This document shows positions 25,016-43,000 of a DNA stretch of 64,000 bases, one piece after another (the stretch's first letter is position 1; every line of letters begins with the position of its first letter). A model generated the notes under the pieces. The model was given only the letters and a program-made list of their open reading frames with translations, was not told the DNA's origin and ran no database searches. The position numbers and the translations under genes were made by a program. Source of the DNA: Schmidtea polychroa (Eukaryota); NCBI GenBank assembly GCA_044892525.1, contig CM097885.1, positions 252,464,001 through 252,528,000 on the forward strand, in the 5' to 3' direction.

Positions 25016-28000
25016 CTAGCATAAAGATTGCACTAGTGAAAATGCTGAGGTTAGAAAATGTCATTTAACTGCCCAATGTCGACTTGTGAATTTGGACTCT
25101 TCATTCCATTTAATTATATCATGCACATTTTACCAATTAATTATTGTTATAAGAACTTTTTTTTCCAATTTCACCATTGAATTTATTTAAGAGAGCTTGA
25201 AGACTAAATCAGTAATATATTGACAAATTTTCGGCACTGGCTTTTTTTTCAAGTTCATGAGTATCAAAAGACATCGATATATTACTGATTTATTAATTAT
25301 TACTAAATACTTCAACCTATTTAAACATTTTATAACCATCAATAACATGATTTGTCTTTGATCTGTTTTCATTAGCAATTCCATTTACCGTCATATAGTT
25401 TTCGAATAAAAATAAATATTTTCTTTTTAAAACAAAACATTGATCATTTTTGATCATCAAAAGCTAAATGGCGATAGATAAAAGTTGATAATTGGTTCAT
25501 CCTGAACATCATGTCATTTTGCAACTATTAATAAACTTTAAACCGAATGTTTAACTCGAAGTCAAAACAGAAAATATTTTGGAAAATATTTGGTAAATTG
25601 CAATGTTTGTTTAAGCAAAAATTCTCTATAAGGTAAAACCGTTTCTCGTTTGATCAAATATATTCGGCCTAAAATGGTAATGAATGTTTTTATGAGTTTG
25701 TACATAAAATTCTGTCACTGAATATATTTTTCAGGCCCGTAACAAGGGTGGTGCAAGCGGTGCAGTCGCTCAGGGCGCACATCTGAAAGGGGCGCAAAAT
25801 TGGGATGTAAAATATTTTTAGTGTTACCAAAAAATATGAATAATTAAAAAAATTATCACATGTCATGCACGAAAAACGACTCTAGCTAGTCTATTTTATC
25901 TTTTACCATTACTGGTTGGACTTGTCCATTAGCGTGCATTAGGTGTGTATTTTGTAAAATCGCCACCATGACATTATTATGCAAAATAAATTCACAAAAT
26001 GAATTTCCATTAAATGCACTATTTTGAGTTTTACAATGTAATATGCCAAATTTGGGGGACCCGTCAAAAGAGCGCAGACAAAAGAGCACAAACTAAAGAT
26101 CGAAAAACAATATTTATTAAATAGGAACAAGAAAATTAACTCAGATCAGACGGTATCGTTTGATGTTAACTCTTTATTGTTTCATTAAAAACTAATTGTT
26201 CAGTTTCTTTAACTAAAAAACTGGTCTAATCAACTGAACGTTTGCGGGCTTCTTAACTATAATAGACTATCAACTGAAGTCCAATTATTCAAAACGCAAT
26301 CTAATAACACATACAAAGATTTTAAATGTTAGGCCTAAAGTGAGAATATAAAATGAAATGAAATGTAACAAAATGAAAGGAAGTTCAAACTAATAAAACG
26401 TTTCTTTATAGTTGCATTTATACTGCTAGGTTGTGGGCTATACCTCGTAGGTAGTCTTATGTCGGCGCTCTTTTGTCGGGGTGCCCAAATTTGGATATTG
26501 CAGCACATGTTGAAAAATCTTTGGACCCAATAGAGCGAACAACTTTTTTAGTTGGAGAACCAATTAAAATTCTGCCACAAGAAATTCTTGGAGAGCAACT
26601 AACGTCCATTTCATCCAAAAAAATATCTTTTCTTAGTTTAAAAAAAGTTATTCGTATTAAAGAACATAATTAATAGTTCTTTAATTTTTTTATCATTTTT
26701 TATTTATAATATAGTTTTTTAATCTTTCAGGCATGCCTGAAACAGATTTTCAGTTCCATGGACGAATACTTTTTTGTTAGAGATAATGGTGAAATTCATA
26801 ATAATGTATTGTAAGTATTGTAACTACTTACACGCAAATTATGTGTGGGATTTATTATTCGCCTGCTGTGCACGTCATACCTGCCTGAAGGGTTCATTTA
26901 AAATATTTTTAATTTATATTTGTTAATATATTTTTTTATATAATTCATATAATAATGTTAAGCTAACAGTTAATATATTAATAATAGATAATTATATTTA
27001 AATAATTATATTTAAATAATTATATTTAAATAATTACAATTACGTACCGAAACTTGTTTCATAGATCTTAAAATCAGGCATTCTATTCTTTCTCAAAGAA
27101 CTATAATTTGCAATGTGACCAATATTTGGTTTCCTATTCCATTGTGAACCCTTAATATAAAAATAATTTATTAAACATAATCTAATAATAATAATGATAT
27201 TAATTATTATATTGTGAGATAAAATTAATGAAAAATTACAATTCTATCGTGCATTCTCTGTCGAACTTTCTCATATCTACTTCCTGGAATCTTTTTCGTT
27301 TGACCTTCATATGCTTTGATCAGCCATGGATGATCAAGACATTCATAAACGGTCATTCGTTTTCTAGAAATAATTTGAAATATCATCAGGAAAGGAGGGA
27401 TATTAAGTTTACTGTGGCTGTCTTATCAATAATTTCCTGATAAAATCTTTAGCATCATCTGATACATTTTTGAAAATGTCATCATTGAAATCATAGGCAC
27501 ATTTTTTCACATTTTGAAGAGTTTCATAATCATCATCGCCGCCAAATGGTGATAGACCACTTAATCTGATAGGAAGATATCGAGAATGAAATGTGAAAAA
27601 GGCACATTGAATCTTACAGAACATATGACAATACACCAACTGCCCACATATCAGTATAGAATCCAACGGGTTCAATCTCAGCCACTTCAGGAGCAGCGAA
27701 TTCTGCTGTTGCAGTGGTCACTTTGACAGGTTCTTCGGGATTAAGTTTTGTAGACAAACCAAAATCTATGATTTTAATGCGATTGCTGTTACTGGTTTCA
27801 CACATGATATTTTCAGGCTGGAAGGACCATTGATGGTTGATTGATCATAAAATATTACAAATTCATAAAATTTACCTTCAAATCCAAATGAATGTATCCT
27901 TCATCGTGCATAAATTTCAAACCATCACATACTTGACGTATGTAATTTGCAGCTTCCGCTTCGTTCATATTATAGCCATCCTCGGTAATTCTGTCGAAAA

Positions 28001-34000: not shown

Positions 34001-37000
34001 AAAACTTCATTTTAGCTCGAATATACATAAAATTTAGTTATCCTTTATGACATGAATTTTTTATTCATTTTCTTTATTTTGAGAAATTATTTTTATTATA
34101 TAAATATTTATATTATTTTGTACAAAAGCCACGTGGGTAACGTAAAATAATCATGAGAGCCAGTCAGGTATGCACAATTCATAGATTCACCACTAATGTT
34201 CTAGATCAGTGATTCTCAGCCTTTTTTTTGTTGCGGCACGCTTTTAACGATTTCAAAATTTTGGGGTACACAAAGAAAAAGATAAGTTGAAAAAACCTAT
34301 ACACTGCGTAAAATAGTTTATGATAAAAATTTTGAATGTACGAAATAAAATAATATGTACTAAAAAAATAACAAAACGTTTATTAAGGATTAATTACAAG
34401 TTAATAATAAAAATACTTATAATGCGAAATTTGATAATTTTTTCTAAATATGAACTAATTGTATCAAAAATATGTTTGCCAGTTGTAAAATCGGGCAACT
34501 CCTCCCGACAACATAAAAATTGATTAATTATATCATTTTCGTGAATAAATTTAACGAATGCTATTACTTGAGCTTTTCCTGTAATGTCTGTTGTTTCGTC
34601 GATTTGTAGAGCAAAATTTGAATTTGCAAGAGTTTCGATATATTACATATCTAAAATTTCGCGGCACAGTGGTTGAGAATCACTGTTCTAGATAATGGTT
34701 TTGTTCAGTGGCGGAACTTCAAAATTTGGGCGCCCCGCGCAATGTAAAATATTTCCACTTAGATTTTTCGGTTAAAGTTTAATACATAGTTATTCACAAC
34801 AGTCGCTATTCAATGATAGTTTTATGTTTGTAGGCAAATATAACTGCGGGAAAAAAGTTTCAGAAAATTATTGTAAATATTTTTTTAGTAATAATTTTGG
34901 GCCCCCGCAATGCAGGGTCCTGCGTCCACTAGTTGCGCCACTGATTTTGTTGCTGTAATATAGTGACTATGTTATGGTTTTCTCTTTAAGAAAGAAGGAC
35001 TCAACGTGGAGGGGCAATCTACTATCAATATCAGTAAAATAATTTTTCCATTTCTTGTGATATTTTATTTATTTTCATATAACTAAATCAAAAATTAATT
35101 TTCCTACGTAACACAAATTTTCAAGTCTTATTAAAAGTAATGTCCAAAATTTCTGTTATATAGGTAAAATTTATTTTTCATCTATATTGAATGTAAATGG
35201 AATACTTTTATATTTTTGGTCGCCTTTTATCATTTTTTTTTGTTTAAATGATATTTTATTTATTTTCATTTTGACAAATAAATAAATCAAGTACTACGAA
35301 TATCCTAGAATTTGAATTGGATCTGATAAGATAATATAGCAATATAGACATATTATATTATAAAATTAGAATTTATGTTTATAATAAAGTTAGTTATTCC
35401 ATAATTCTTAATAAATACAATGAAAATGATTCTATTGAAACAATGCTAAATTACCTTTAGGATCTTTAACTTTAACAGTTCTAGATGCAACAGATGGCGC
35501 ACTCAATCCAGCATCGTTTTCAGCAAACACTCGAAACTCATAACTTTTATCCTCTATCAAATTTGGAATGTTGAATGTGGTTGGAAGGCATGGTTGAAAG
35601 TTAACTTTTGTCCAATTAGGATTTCCAGCTTCTCTTTTTTCAATATAATAACCTCTAACTTTCCCTCCACCGTCAGAAGATGGTTTGGTCCATGATAAAC
35701 TTACAAAATCACCACCAACCTCAGTTACTGTTGGTTCACCGGGAGCTCCAGGTTTATCTGAATGCAATCAAAATTAACTTACTGCTATTATGACTTTAAA
35801 TTTTCTACCGAACGGTAACTTGGCAACAATGTCATTTTCTAATTCTAAATATTCTCCTGGACCATGCTGATTAACAGCTGCTACACGGAATTTATAGAGC
35901 TGATTTTCTTGGAGACCTTGTACTACAAATCGAGGCTCTTTGCACATTGAAGAAATTGTTGTCCATTGATCTTTTCCGGGTTCTTTTTTCTCAACAATGT
36001 AATGAAGAACTTTGCTTCCGCCATCATTTTGTGGAGGTTTCCATGCTAAATTGCAAGTGTTCTTCGTAATATCTGAAACCGATAATGGTCCGAGACATTT
36101 TCCAGGGGAATCTTGAAAAATCCATATAATAAAGATAATTTTTCACGGGGAAATATGTTACCAATGACTTTAGTTTTAAACGGAATGGAAGTAGCACCAC
36201 TTTCATTTGAAATTTCCAATTTATAATTGCCAGCCTCTTCGGGACTAACATCTACACAAACCGATAATATTCACAACATTAATATTTCACTAATAGAAAC
36301 CTTTCAATTGCACTGTGACAAAACCATCGAATTCAGTGATTTTAATTTTATCTGATTCTGGAAGATCTTTGTTGTCCTTTTTTAATTTTAACTTAATATT
36401 TCCTTTTCCACTAAACGGGATTTTGAATTTTATTGTTTCTCCAGCTTCAGCGACTTGATCTGGAACATCGGATATTGCTTTTGGTACAGCTGAATATTGT
36501 TATGCAATCATTAATAACAATTGGCTAAAATTCCCAGTTACTTACAAAGTACTTCTAGTGGTGCACTGCAACTATCTTTACCAGCTTTATTTTTTATTTC
36601 ACAAGTGATATTTCCACCATCTTTGTCATCGACATCGGAAATCTCAAGAGTTAAAAGTCCATCATCGTCTCTCATTTTCACTTTGCCAGATGGTCTTAAT
36701 TCGATTCCGTTCTTCAACCACTTGACTTCTGGAGTAGGTTTACCGTCAACTCTACATTGGAAGGTTGCTGTGCCACCAATCGGAGAAGTTAACGGGGTGA
36801 TTTTGCTCAAAAACTCGGGAGTTGTTCCGGCTGTTAAAATGAATGCCAACTTAACTAGTTAGAGTAACGGCCATAAAAGAAACCTGTTTTATCAAATATC
36901 TTTGTAGGCAATGTTGAATCACTGGGTTCACTGGGTCCTGCTGCATTGACTGCACGTACTCTGAATTCATATTCTTCATTTTCTTCTAGATTTGGGATAG

Positions 37001-40000
37001 TTGTTTGATTTCCAATTATTGGTTTATCAGTTATCGGTTCCCAATCTCCACCTTTTTTACGCTTTTCAACCTGATAGCCAACAACTTTATTTCCACCATC
37101 TTTTATTGGTTTTGACCATGACAAATCAACATAATCTTTACCAACTTTATCTATTAATGGAGTACTAGGTGCATCTGGTATAGCTGAAAGCAAAAATAAT
37201 TTCATGTAGATAAACGAAAACTGAAAAATCTATTATTCATAATGGATCCCATAAACAGTATAATCTAAGTTGATAATATGAACAATGATGATGTTGAGTG
37301 CCTACATACCACCATAGTGAAATTTCCCATAAAGATTAGATAATTTCTCTGTGGATATCAACAACAGTATGAACAATCTATAACTGTTCTAAGAGAGTAA
37401 AAGTAGCCAAGGTGATCATTAAGTCTGAATAAAATAGAAACTTCAACGCCGCTATAGAAAGAAATACATCCTTCGACCATTTAATGTACATCTTACTATT
37501 ACTACAGATAAAATAGTAACTAGAATATTTAAGGTATTAGATAATAAATAATGAATAATATTCATAGAATGTGTCCAATGCAAGAATATGACAAAGCAGA
37601 AGTATAAAAATTATTAGACTCAAATTACTCTATAACAATAATAATTCATATCTTTACAAAAGTTTATTCTATTCAATTAGTTTTCTAATCTTTAATCTTC
37701 TTTATTTTTGTTTTATTGATAATAGCTTTACACAATTTTAACAATAAATATCATTTCTAATACATAAAAATGAAAGTATGTGGAGGTTTGTATGTCCGAA
37801 TATATGAACTTCAAATTATTGGTAAAAGGTAGACAAATGTATTCAATTTTTCAAATTAAAAACGTAGAAGACCGAATGAACTTCAAATTCGTTCTGTTTA
37901 CTATACTAATGAGAAAAAAATGTCAAAATTTTTATGCAAAAAAACAACATGAAAATATTTTTTAGACGATTTAAAATGTTTATTATTTTTTTCATTTTCT
38001 TTTTTGTTTCTTTTTGTCTATCTCACTCTCTCGGTACGGTATATATGGATGGGTATAGTATGGCTGAATAAGGTGAGGTAAAGTGGAATTGTGATTTTGT
38101 GACTTTTATACAGAAATGAAGAAAATAAAAATTTTCATGAAATTATCTTTTTCTTTGTTAGTTTAACATCATTGCAGGGGGCCGTTTATAATATTATTTT
38201 ACTCTTTCAAATAGCCCCGGGTAGCGCCAAGTAGATAATAATAAATAAAAATAATAATTATAATAATAATAATAATTTTACACCATTACTTTATAAGTTA
38301 AAAATGCTAAAGGTAATCAGATGCACTTGTAAACAGTTTCTATGTATCGCCTAATTTTTTAGTCCAGAGAGTTGATTATGATTTTTCATACGCCATGTTT
38401 ACAAGTTTACAGATTTTCTGTGACCAAGCAAATAAGCAAGTGATATGATTTGCAGTGTAGCAGGGAAAGTATGCAATAAAGTTGAATCGGCAATATTGTA
38501 TACTTACCTGGCGCGAAGAGAAATCTTAGTACTGATGAGAGACAAAAGCTCGAAACTAGTCGACTATTGAAATTTGCACTGGGTATCACAAANNNNNNNN
38601 NNNNNNNNNNNNNNNNNNNNNNNNNNNNNNNNNNNNNNNNNNNNNNNNNNNNNNNNNNNNNNNNNNNNNNNNNNNNNNNNNNNNNNNNNNNNNNNNNNNN
38701 NNNNNNNNNNNNNNNNNNNNNNNNNNNNNNNNNNNNNNNNNNNNNNNNNNNNNNNNNNNNNNNNNNNNNNNNNNNNNNNNNNNNNNNNTTAATTATAATA
38801 ATGATAATAATAATTAATGTTAATAAATTAATAAATTACGAACTATATTTCGGCTTGCATTGAACAGTGTTTGTGCACTGACTTGGCTCACTTAGGCCAG
38901 CATCGTTCTTTGCCCTAACTCGAAATTGATACTTTTGGTCCTTTTTCAAATTTGGAACTAAGAAAATTTTAATTGACAACATTTTATAATTGAAATTTAC
39001 TTGTTGCGCTCGGTGTTTTAACTAATCCAATTGGAGCTTTGATCCAATCATCGCTGCCCTCTGGTTTGTATTCAACTTGATAGCCTGCGATTCGTTTACC
39101 GCCATCATTTTTCGGTTTAGTCCATTCTAAAGTGACAGCATTTTCATCAACATCAACAGGTGTCACATTAGTCGGACAATCAGGAGCAGCTAAACATTAA
39201 AAAAAATTGTTTAGGAAAATTTCTCGAGAAAATCTTTTACTAAATGGAGATTGAGCAATTATCGGCTTGTCTGTTTCCAGAGGTTCCCCAACACCGAATT
39301 CGTTTTCAGCTTTCACTCTGAAACTATACGGTTTTCCTTCATCCAACCCAAATACTTCATAATCGGTTCCTTTCACAAATCTGCTTAAAGGTTTCCATTC
39401 ACCAGTACTCGGCTCTTTCATTTCCACCACATAATTAGAAACGGGACTCCCTCCATTTTCCTAGGAATTATAATAATAATATTAATATCTTTTATAAGAT
39501 AAAAATAATTAATATTGAACTTTAGGAGGTTTCCATGATAATTTACAGCTATCTCCTGTAACTTGTGACACTTCCAATGGACCGTCAGGCTTATCTGGTT
39601 TATCGAAAACGGTTACTTTAACTGGAACACTGTCTGAGCCTTTGGGATTCTTTAATGTTATGTTGTAAAGACCTTGATCCTTTTTCTGGGGATTGAGATT
39701 TGTTATTACTACTTCATCTGGTTTAACTTCAACTATGAAATTTGGGTTTGCAGTAATCGGTTCCCCATTCTACTCATTTTATATTTATCAATGAAAATGC
39801 TTAGAAAATCAATCTTACTAATTCACAAATAACTTCAGGAGGAGGATAACCACCGGAATAGGGAATTTTGATTTGAAATTTTTCCCCGGCTATTGCTTTA
39901 ATTTGTTTAGGATTTTTGTCAAGAATTTTTGGCGGACCTTAAAAATAAATTTAATTTTCATTTTATTTTAATTTTATTTACTTTCCGGTTTTTGAACTTT

Positions 40001-43000
40001 AACCAAATCAGTTGGTTCACTTGGTTCTCCAGGACCAACTTCATTAACTGGAATAATTCGGAACTCAAATTCTTTTCCTTCAGGCAAATTTTTGACTGTA
40101 TAATCAGTACCATTTACAGGAAGTATATTGGCTCTAAATTAATTACAATAAATTTCTTTTATTTTATNNNNNNNNNNNNNNNNNNNNNNNNNNNNNNNNN
40201 NNNNNNNNNNNNNNNNNNNNNNNNNNNNNNNNNNNNNNNNNNNNNNNNNNNNNNNNNNNNNNNNNNNNNNNNNNNNNNNNNNNNNNNNNNNNNNNNNNNN
40301 NCCCAGAGGCTGGCTTTCTTTATTAACTTTAGAAATATAATCCAACACAACTGTTATCATGTCATCTGTGAAGTCATCATAATATTGTTTCAACCATTCT
40401 TTGTTTTTTGTCACTGATTGATCGTTTATTGAATTCAAAACATTGGATAATTGTTCAACACTTTTGCTAGCAAACATTTGAATTGTGTTTATCCTTTTAA
40501 GAGCTCGATTAAATAGAATATCATATTCCTTCTTTTCGGCAGTTCCATATTCTGGTTTATTATTCTTTGACATGAAACGATGAACAAAACTATTAGTGGC
40601 ATTTGACCAAAAATATATGGTTTGACTTGTAATTCTAAAGGGAGTTCCAGCATCATATATAGCACTATCTTTTGCAGCAATTATTCTGTCACCACTTGGT
40701 CTAATAGAAGTGGCATAATATTCACCAGATGATTCAATAACATTCTCCGACGATTGTATGAGATTTGCGAAATCTTGGATGATACTAGAAAATGTACAAG
40801 AGTTTTTCATTTTTAAAATTCCCCAAAAATATAACCGGTTAAAACAAATTCTTCAAACAAAACCCGAATTACCAGAATTAAAATCAATTCTACAAACTAA
40901 TTTCAAAACTATACTATATAAAAAATACAAAAAACCTACTTCTCGCGTCTGTGTGCGCACACTAACAAGAATCGGTCTAACCATACGGCGCACACAGACG
41001 CGATACAAAAACCANNNNNNNNNNNNNNNNNNNNNNNNNNNNNNNNNNNNNNNNNNNNNNNNNNNNNNNNNNNNNNNNNNNNNNNNNNNNNNNNNNNNNN
41101 NNNNNNNNNNNNNNNNNNNNNNNNNNNNNNNNNNNNNNNNNNNNNNNNNNNNNNNNNNNNNNNNNNNNNNNNNNNNNNNNNNNNNNNNNNNNNNNNNNNN
41201 NNNNNNNNNNNNNNNNNNNNNNNNNNNNNNNNNNNNNNNNNNNNNNNNTGTCCATTTTTTGTCTCCTTTTTCTCTTTTTTCAATAATATATCCTTGGACT
41301 GGTTTGCCTCCATCCTTTTTAGGTGGTTCCCACGATAGTGTAACAGAATCTTCAGTTACTCCATCAACCTTCGGAGGTTTGACAGGTCCAGGTGGGTCTA
41401 TATTATTATTTCTTTCCAAACTTCAAATTGCCAAAAATATTTACCAAATGGATTCTTCGCTTTAATCGGTGCCGTGGTCATAAGTGGTTTTCCTACCCCT
41501 AGCGCATTTTCAGCCATTACTCGGAACTCATATTCCGTACCTTCTTCTAAATTTCTGATTTTAGCCGTCGGAGAATTAATCAGATTTCCCGCTTTCTGCC
41601 ATCTAAATATTGAAATAATTTCCAAAATCCATCATCGGAATATGTAATGAAGAATAACATACACATCGGATCCTTTAGGCTTCTTTTCAACGATATAATT
41701 TGTTACTGGTTCACCTCCATTATCTTTCGGAGGTTTCCAGGACAATGTTATGGAATTCGCCTGTATTTCTGAAGCTTCCAAAGGTCCCTCGGGAGCAGCA
41801 GGAACATCTATAATTTTGAAAATTATACAAATTATTAGAAACATTTATAAATACCCAAAACTTTAACTTCGCAACTACCGATATCTTGTCCGGAATCATT
41901 TTTCAGTGTAAGACTTATTTTACCGGAATCTGATCGTTTTGCATTCGAAACTGCAAGAATCACTACATTGTCTTCTGGATTGATGGAAATATGTGTGCGC
42001 TGATCATCGGTAATCGGTTCATCGTTCTTTTTCCAATTCACAACTGGTGTTGGAAATCCTCCAGTGTATGGGACTTTTATCTGGAAATCTTGACCGGCTT
42101 TGACAGTTATATCTTTCAGTCCGGACAAATTTAATTTAGGTGCCTCTGGTTGATCCTCTGCCGTAATAACCTTTGTTGGCTTGCTAGGCTCACTGGGACC
42201 GGCATCGTTGACAGCGATAACTCTAAATTGAGCTTCTTCTCCGGGTTTCATTGGAATATCAGCAGTATTTTCACCATTTGCTGGAACTTCTTTTACTGGT
42301 TCCCATTCTCCATCTTTGTTCTTTTTCTCAATAACATATTCCTTTATTTTACTGCCACCATCATGTTTCGGTTTGTTCCATGATAGTTTTATTCCATTTT
42401 TAGAGATTTTATCAACATTTGGAGTTGCTGGAGAATCGGCTGGAACTGTAAGAACTTGCATATCAAATGAGAATAAATATTTCAAATAACAAACATATTG
42501 GATCTTTAACTGTATGGGGTTTGGTAATTTTAGAAGGCTCCCCGGGACCTGCATCATTAACAGCTTTAACTCTAAACTCATACTGTTTTCCTTCAATAAG
42601 ATTCATAACTGTTTGACTTGCCCCAGGAGCAAGTGTAGGACTCGCCTTTTGCCAGTCTCCACCAACTAATTTCTTTTCTACTTGATATCCTTAAATATTT
42701 GTATAATTACTTATAAGTGTAAATATATTTATAAACCTTTAATTGGATTACCGCCATCGGATATTGGAGGCTTCCAAGCCAATGTTACTGACATCCGATC
42801 AAACTGAGTAATTTTTAATTCTTCTGGTGAACCTGGCGCATCTGAAATTCGAAAAATGATTTAATGATTTATTGAGGTTTTGTGTTACCAAATGGATTTT
42901 TGGCCGTTATCAATTCAGTTTCTGCAGGTTTACCTGTACCCATTTTATTAACTGCGCTAATGCGAAATTTATATCGTTTGTCTTTTTCAAGATTTTTCAC

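Follow-up and report, generated by a model that had tools for sequence, protein, structure and literature searches.

The window analysed here, a stretch of 64,000 nucleotides from Schmidtea polychroa (contig CM097885.1), carries on its minus strand a putative titin/twitchin-like gene, whose tested exons encode I-set and fn3 domains. One intron of this gene harbors a hammerhead motif within a repeat on the opposite strand. The features of this region are the following, in positions of the window:

37184 to 38843, minus strand: host intron of 1,660 nt in the Ig/Fn3 (putative titin/twitchin-like) gene, flanked by exons 38844-38957 and 36884-37183
38235 to 38274, no strand: upstream half of the likely (TAA)n target tract, which resumes downstream of the element
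38275 to 38611, plus strand: 5'-truncated copy of a probable retrozyme unit, spanning unit positions 76-383 and then +1 to +50 past the cut site; its final ~19 bases are N in the window and were taken from the genome locus L001
38460 to 38511, plus strand: long hairpin from folds; the U1 stretch lies in the 3' arm, and the sequence of the 5' arm resembles a degenerate donor
38500 to 38515, plus strand: 16 nt equal to nucleotides 1-16 of a host U1 snRNA type; the minus (host-gene) strand reads a perfect CAG/GTAAGTAT donor
38526 to 38527, plus strand: junction of a 14-nt deletion (alignment A1) that removes the 3' arm of a GAAA hairpin, the YGC bulge and A2.6
38527 to 38566, plus strand: decayed type I hammerhead with an intact core and a predicted cut after 38561
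38555 to 38560, plus strand: palindromic helix III ACUAGU (2 bp and a 2-nt loop in the sequence), predicted to pair between two copies

That the motif lies in an intron and antisense to the host gene had been proposed in a first-pass annotation, and both points hold. The joint 37183 to 38844, with CT..AC ends on the plus strand, is found in three of three RNA-like runs (contigs from two samples and two studies, with an RNA status that is guessed and not on record) and is absent from the DNA-like run. In the contigs of the RNA-like runs the intron is removed whole. An alternative in which a minus-strand open frame, ending at the perfect donor 38508/38507, forms an exon was rejected, as the intron is skipped whole in the contigs, from which rare exonised forms would be lost. 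The hammerhead resides on the plus strand, antisense to the host pre-mRNA, and therefore cannot cut it. Elsewhere on the minus strand of the window, the stretch 39977-41422 contains a long open frame (40142-40852) between host exons, which is interrupted by N, is unlike Ig/Fn3 and is possibly an intronic insertion, and the frame at 34397-34642 may resemble a fragment of a hAT/Buster-type transposase.

The conserved hammerhead core is present as originally described, with CUGAUGA at 38532-38538, GAAA at 38552-55 and the GUC triplet with C17 at 38561, and so are helix II (GAG/CUC, 38539-41/38549-51), the helix III palindrome and helix I (UAGU/ACUA). The core pattern matches the window twice against 0.15 expected, and at least two matches were reached in 2 of 100 shuffles; the 40-mer folds no better than its shuffles (z +0.60). 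The search with hammerhead models proposed in the first-pass annotation gave a divided answer: in the window region the Rfam search returned no hammerhead match, so that the motif itself was not called, and the intact family hammerhead matched Hammerhead_1 (RF00163) over its full length at 27.4 bits (E 0.004), below the gathering score of 34. A search for related copies, likewise proposed, located the intact 40-nt hammerhead at 640 exact places in the genome, while the reversed control gave 0. Taken alone, the core pattern in the window is thus weak evidence, and it rises above chance because of the family, with its 640 exact intact copies, the empty reversed control and the Hammerhead_1 match. 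We conclude that the hammerhead motif at 38527-38566 is real.

In the family form, helix I comprises 6 bp, helix II 4 bp closed by the loop CAAAA, and helix III the 2-bp palindrome; there is an unpaired U1.7 and a YGC bulge, and no extra base intervenes between positions 9 and 10.1. We take the YGC bulge to resemble that of the Schistosoma Sm-alpha hammerhead. The full-length match to the type I hammerhead model RF00163 and the CAAAA loop 2 likewise recall Sm-alpha, from which the family differs by its sub-gathering score, by a helix III cut to ACUAGU and by the lack of any tRNA-like head that we could find. The unpaired U1.7 and the final A of loop 2 correspond to a contact described in the available part of PMC11875169.

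The assignment to the type I hammerheads of the Penelope and retrozyme world, with a palindromic helix III, was correct, whereas the description as a minimal hammerhead of Penelope-like elements (PLEs) has to be revised. With the minimal hammerheads (min-HHRs) of PLE pseudo-LTRs, as far as the accessible text of PMC4209133 (Cervera & de la Pena 2014) describes them, the family shares the type I topology, the palindromic 15.2-16.2/loop 3, the G10.1-C11.1 pair and the dimer model. Unlike these, it has helices I and II of 6 and 4 bp, nothing unpaired between 9 and 10.1 and no linked ORF; none of the marks of a min-HHR (an extra unpaired base between 9 and 10.1, a long helix II, a short helix I) occurs in it. 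By the definitions given in that available text, the family hammerhead is the canonical metazoan form.

The minimal look of the window copy arises through decay, namely the 14-nt deletion and the loss of two base pairs, 2.1-1.1 and the fourth of helix II. The A-G mismatch at 2.1-1.1, noted from the start, cuts helix I to 4 bp and is peculiar to this copy: among 33 aligned copies the pair is A-U in 30, G-U in one, a gap in one and A-G in the window copy only. The A38542-G38548 mismatch reduces helix II to 3 bp. Helices I and II together reach -1.8 kcal/mol in the window copy versus -6.7 in an intact copy. Judged by these sequence changes, the window copy is likely inactive; it is a single unit with three lesions, not a locus of tandem intact hammerheads as expected of an active retrozyme. 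The deletion junction exists at two places genome-wide, the other being L002 (G000:C1:252105561-252105712), 397 kb away, which has the same 14-nt deletion and helix II change with the 5' half of the other subfamily. Such a shared deletion next to unlike 5' halves hints at gene conversion or template switching.

Could the host nevertheless have adopted this copy as an antisense ribozyme acting on the twitchin-like gene? In favor of this, the copy has kept its core nucleotides together with U1.7 and the final A of loop 2. Against it stand the antisense orientation to the pre-mRNA, the three structural lesions, the lack of a partner within 1.5 kb on either side, the normal splicing of the intron and a divergence like that of any aging insertion (~6-7%, or 93-94% identity to the nearest copies), and we consider adoption extremely improbable. 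The site is nothing special: among at least 640 copies of the repeat, the one in the window is ordinary and probably dead.

The run of N beside the motif had been read as an assembly gap that might conceal collapsed tandem copies. The window's own genome place (L001 in G000) contains no N, and across the run it adds ~19 more element bases followed by the (TAA)n tract. In the 3.2-kb L001 locus, with 1.5 kb searched on either side and on both strands, there is no second hammerhead. Because L001 is continuous, without N and with one hammerhead only, collapsed tandems lack assembly support, and this explanation was rejected.

The family unit is 371-383 bp long, non-coding and low in GC, and we found no ORF and no tRNA or tRNA-like head in it. 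A rough first look with 153 bases around the motif gave 1,203 genome candidates (1,203-1,829 across queries), and the family is spread across all large contigs, in part as lone truncated copies and in part as partial tandems or full arrays. In the L029-31 array, three hammerheads in identical units lie 383 bp apart, and other tandems are spaced by 371-378 bp; at least two same-strand hammerheads occur in 17 of 120 loci. Folded as circles, five of five natural units were more stable than their shuffles (z -5.5 to -9.8, 40 shuffles each), with helices I and II formed. The palindrome ACUAGU is predicted to form an intermolecular duplex at -4.8 kcal/mol.

Metazoan non-LTR retrozymes have been described in PMC7229834 (Cervera & de la Pena 2020) and bioRxiv 10.64898/2026.07.22.740005 (Li, Clavereau & Pollet 2026). 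In the parts of these papers available to us, they are non-coding, low-GC units of 150-450 bp with one canonical type I hammerhead, organised as tandem arrays and dispersed monomers, with a highly paired predicted circle and co-occurring with PLEs. The present family agrees in all of this, in that its low-GC unit without ORF or tRNA falls within the size range, carries the canonical type I hammerhead, occurs in tandem and folds into a highly paired predicted circle. It differs in that no homology to a resident pseudo-LTR (pLTR) was found and in that it carries nucleotides 1-16 of U1. The family therefore fits a non-LTR retrozyme in every membership feature settled here, with cleavage and circles predicted from the models; in the literature searched it is undescribed. 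As for activity in the class, the available text of Li et al. (bioRxiv 10.64898/2026.07.22.740005) reports cleavage in only one of nine predicted dimers.

Like this low rate, several results from the alignments count against the retrozyme reading. No compensatory changes occur in the 12 hammerhead pairs among the 33 copies used in alignment A1 (16 of 49 copies omitted), and over the whole unit the covariation term is +0.24, with both sides changed in 2 of 79 pairs. Between the two subfamilies, fixed differences number 0 in 52 hammerhead columns versus 34 in 259 upstream columns (48 of 58 loci used, 10 partial copies dropped); this zero is weak evidence because conservation extends over the entire 3' half and because the 5' halves had served to pick the subfamilies. 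The intact 42-mer is kept in 14 of 48 copies that were chosen by the 5' half irrespective of the hammerhead, and looking for variants of helix II, we obtained 20 point mutants, which were scattered.

The missing covariation, as well as the deletion that the window copy and L002 share despite their different 5' halves, would be compatible with a satellite-like repeat that spreads at the DNA level, by unequal crossover or conversion, and for which the hammerhead no longer matters. The dispersal over all large contigs, the clustered 3' ends, the ragged 5' ends and the inverted heads are not predicted by DNA-level spread, however, and we regard this explanation as very improbable.

The 120 hammerhead sites in 93 loci (counted after 6 duplicate loci had been dropped, with some loci still overlapping the same place) comprise 3 that are unanchored, 17 that continue into another unit and 100 that end within the unit. 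Past the cut site, 64 of these 100 3' ends lie at +45-55, 27 at +76-97 and 9 elsewhere, positions being fuzzy in AT-rich DNA. The two clusters are ~35-40 nt apart, and the copies mostly run into AT-rich or (TAA)n/(TA)n DNA. An inverted part is present in 35 of 120 loci, and the 5' ends are scattered from 39 to 383. Such copies all span the cut site, and therefore the template must have been an uncleaved multimer or a re-ligated circle.

PLEs possess an optional 30-40-bp tail, inversions and a bias for microsatellites, according to the available part of PMC8557442 (Craig et al. 2021), and an anole PLE starts reverse transcription at two internal sites, with uncleaved RNA as the main substrate, in the accessible text of PMC11167929 (Frangieh et al. 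2024). As in the Penelope/Poseidon PLEs of the available portions of both papers, the family displays 5' truncation, copies with inverted 5' parts and partial tandems, its targets are rich in AT/ATT, and downstream of the hammerhead it ends at either of two sites that are 30-45 nt apart; the optional 30-40-bp 3' tail, the inverted 5' parts, the partial tandems and the AT or microsatellite targets all point to mobilisation by a PLE. Unlike these elements, the family codes for no protein and must work in trans. We thus have direct evidence for the two-site PLE tail on a retrozyme, of a kind that we did not encounter in the available portions of the published retrozyme accounts examined. Taking the evidence together, the stretch very probably represents one copy of a non-LTR retrozyme that is truncated at the 5' end, mutated and likely inactive, and that a PLE likely inserted into intronic (TAA)n DNA.

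The genuine min-HHRs of the genome are those of two other PLE families, which carry ORFs. The first (L072:2110-4990, in G000:C2:183466500-183474500) has an uninterrupted ORF of 856 aa with RVT_1 (RT) and GIY-YIG domains and a minimal hammerhead with a U3-A8 core variant, present in 1,932 exact copies; its ends fall at +56-64 past its own hammerhead in 19 of 30 cases and at +92-96 in 11 of 30. The ATG of L072 sits between the two 3'-end sites of the element. The second family (L069, L053, L217-L241) has 850 exact hammerhead copies, mostly with the U3-A8 core and with C3-G8 in L069, and by eye its ends lie at about +60 and +110 past the hammerhead. Both hammerheads contain the extra base between 9 and 10.1, with helices II of 6 bp and 3 bp, respectively. 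Because of its end spacing, the L072 family is the better helper candidate of the two. In the second family, the predicted cut coincides exactly with C/GTGAGTAT; this sequence forms helix I and is close to the consensus of a 5' splice site. Short matches to the 3' region of this family appear on both strands at window positions 25180-25293.

Alternatively, the unit might itself be the pLTR of an undiscovered autonomous Penelope-like element, with the copies as its truncated 3' ends. The tail signature, the inversions and the targets are those of PLEs, whose insertions are mostly 5'-truncated, and our GIY-YIG scoring covered the best 150 of 2,572 candidates. Yet upstream of copies that are long enough we always find another unit and never an ORF, ORF scans of the first 50 loci revealed no PLE ORF (RT plus GIY-YIG) beside any of them, and the two PLE families found bear different, minimal U3-A8 hammerheads. 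The unit also has no detectable homology to the terminal repeat of either PLE (39 and 128 of 300 shuffles score as well). No parent PLE was identified among 34 GIY-YIG loci, where the two unit matches (L056, L076) are separate insertions beside PLE copies. We therefore judge the pLTR origin distinctly unlikely. At L056, L076 and L012, the ends of retrozymes and PLEs are direct neighbours within one AT-rich tract, which would suit a common choice of targets.

For the retrozyme, we propose a cycle in which tandem arrays are likely transcribed, a step visible solely as RNA-like contigs of one array variant. The canonical type I hammerheads, probably acting as dimers through ACUAGU, are expected to process the multimer to unit lengths. 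Judging from the folding and from known retrozymes, ligation would turn each unit into a circle with extensive pairing. A PLE protein would then likely start reverse transcription inside the RNA at about +45-55 or +76-97, copy across the uncleaved or re-ligated site and insert the product at AT-rich DNA, in keeping with the end clusters, inverted heads and targets that we observe; the inserted copies decay, as in the window.

With regard to expression, run X2, which is RNA-like and has no intron cover, contains only three contigs on the unit, which together form a closed cycle of 378 nt that runs over the cut site. Of the loci compared, only the L029-31 array has the three substitutions that these contigs carry. 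Run X1 has many variants of the unit, X5 has some and X11 has none, the last of which is not evidence. These data suggest a transcribed source array, with contigs that cannot separate a circle from array read-through.

An unusual element of the unit is its U1 stretch. The 16-mer is identical to nucleotides 1-16 in four of the eight host U1 genes compared, is exact at 913 genome places and is common to both subfamilies. The longest U1 match in 20,000 shuffles was 11; the analytic chance is 6e-8 for this match, 8e-6 if any U1 16-mer is allowed and 2e-4 when only the five bases outside the splice-site-pairing part are considered, a wide margin for a match that was spotted after the fact. The similarity between unit and U1 upstream DNA ends at the 16-mer, apart from one flanking T in two of four genes, and the 16-mer is absent from both PLE loci tested. 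A metagenome search for the U1-like stretch together with the hammerhead yielded a sole match (L250), without helix I, which we took as chance.

SINEU elements, SINEs with U1- or U2-derived heads, provide a precedent for a 5' piece of U1 on a retroelement, explained by template switching in the available part of PMC4494074 (Kojima 2015). The present family resembles SINEU, as presented in that part of PMC4494074, in the joining of a U1 5' piece to a retroelement. Unlike SINEU as described there, it has only 16 nt, which are internal to a circularly permuted unit and paired in a hairpin, and where SINEU relies on Tx1 for mobilisation, the family has a hammerhead and ends of the PLE type; the U1/U2 head at the 5' end and the LINE-type 3' end that characterize SINEU are both missing from the family. 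A retrozyme with a U1 5'-end fragment was not found in the accessible literature searched.

We also weighed whether the 16-mer is functional, which would mean either that the hairpin opens in the circle so that the RNA pairs with 5' splice sites, or that U1 snRNP is bound by the opposite strand, with effects of the family and its intronic copies on splicing or RNA stability. The exact match to nucleotides 1-16, starting at nucleotide 1, and the 913 exact copies in both subfamilies would suit such a role. In the predicted circle of the intact unit, however, 14 of the 16 U1 bases have an unpaired probability near 0, and conservation of the 16-mer does not exceed that of the adjoining sequence (31 of 49 copies versus a median of 29). 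The perfect antisense donor of the window copy is unused in the contigs of three of three RNA-like runs. The 5' ends of the copies do not pile up at the 16-mer (1 of 58), which also led us to reject a U1-primed second strand. A function is thus unlikely; if true, an RNA circle that uses U1 would be a mobile RNA with a direct handle on the spliceosome, and ~900 perfect splice donors would have been seeded genome-wide. Most likely, the 16-mer dates back to the ancestor of the family, in which a single template jump onto U1 snRNA left it as a relic now held in a hairpin.

The family is of modest value, which lies in its two-site tail and its U1 5'-end fragment. The fragment, probably a relic, would matter if it engaged the spliceosome. 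As the Penelope two-site tail on a retrozyme and a PLE with an intact ORF are found in one genome, the partnership between retrozyme and PLE is directly testable with named natural sequences.

Three minor observations concern other repeats and the U1 genes. The search for other families with a palindromic helix III returned 393 matches; by eye, most of the 100 matches listed belong to an abundant, unrelated repeat (L167-L186) with CTGAGGA...GAAACAAGTC spacing and no evident helix II. The eight U1 genes, from C1 and C2, represent at least three U1 sequence types. At G000:C4:74005298-74060415, a tandem array contains at least 31 U1-like genes (88.6 bits) at a spacing of ~1.77 kb.
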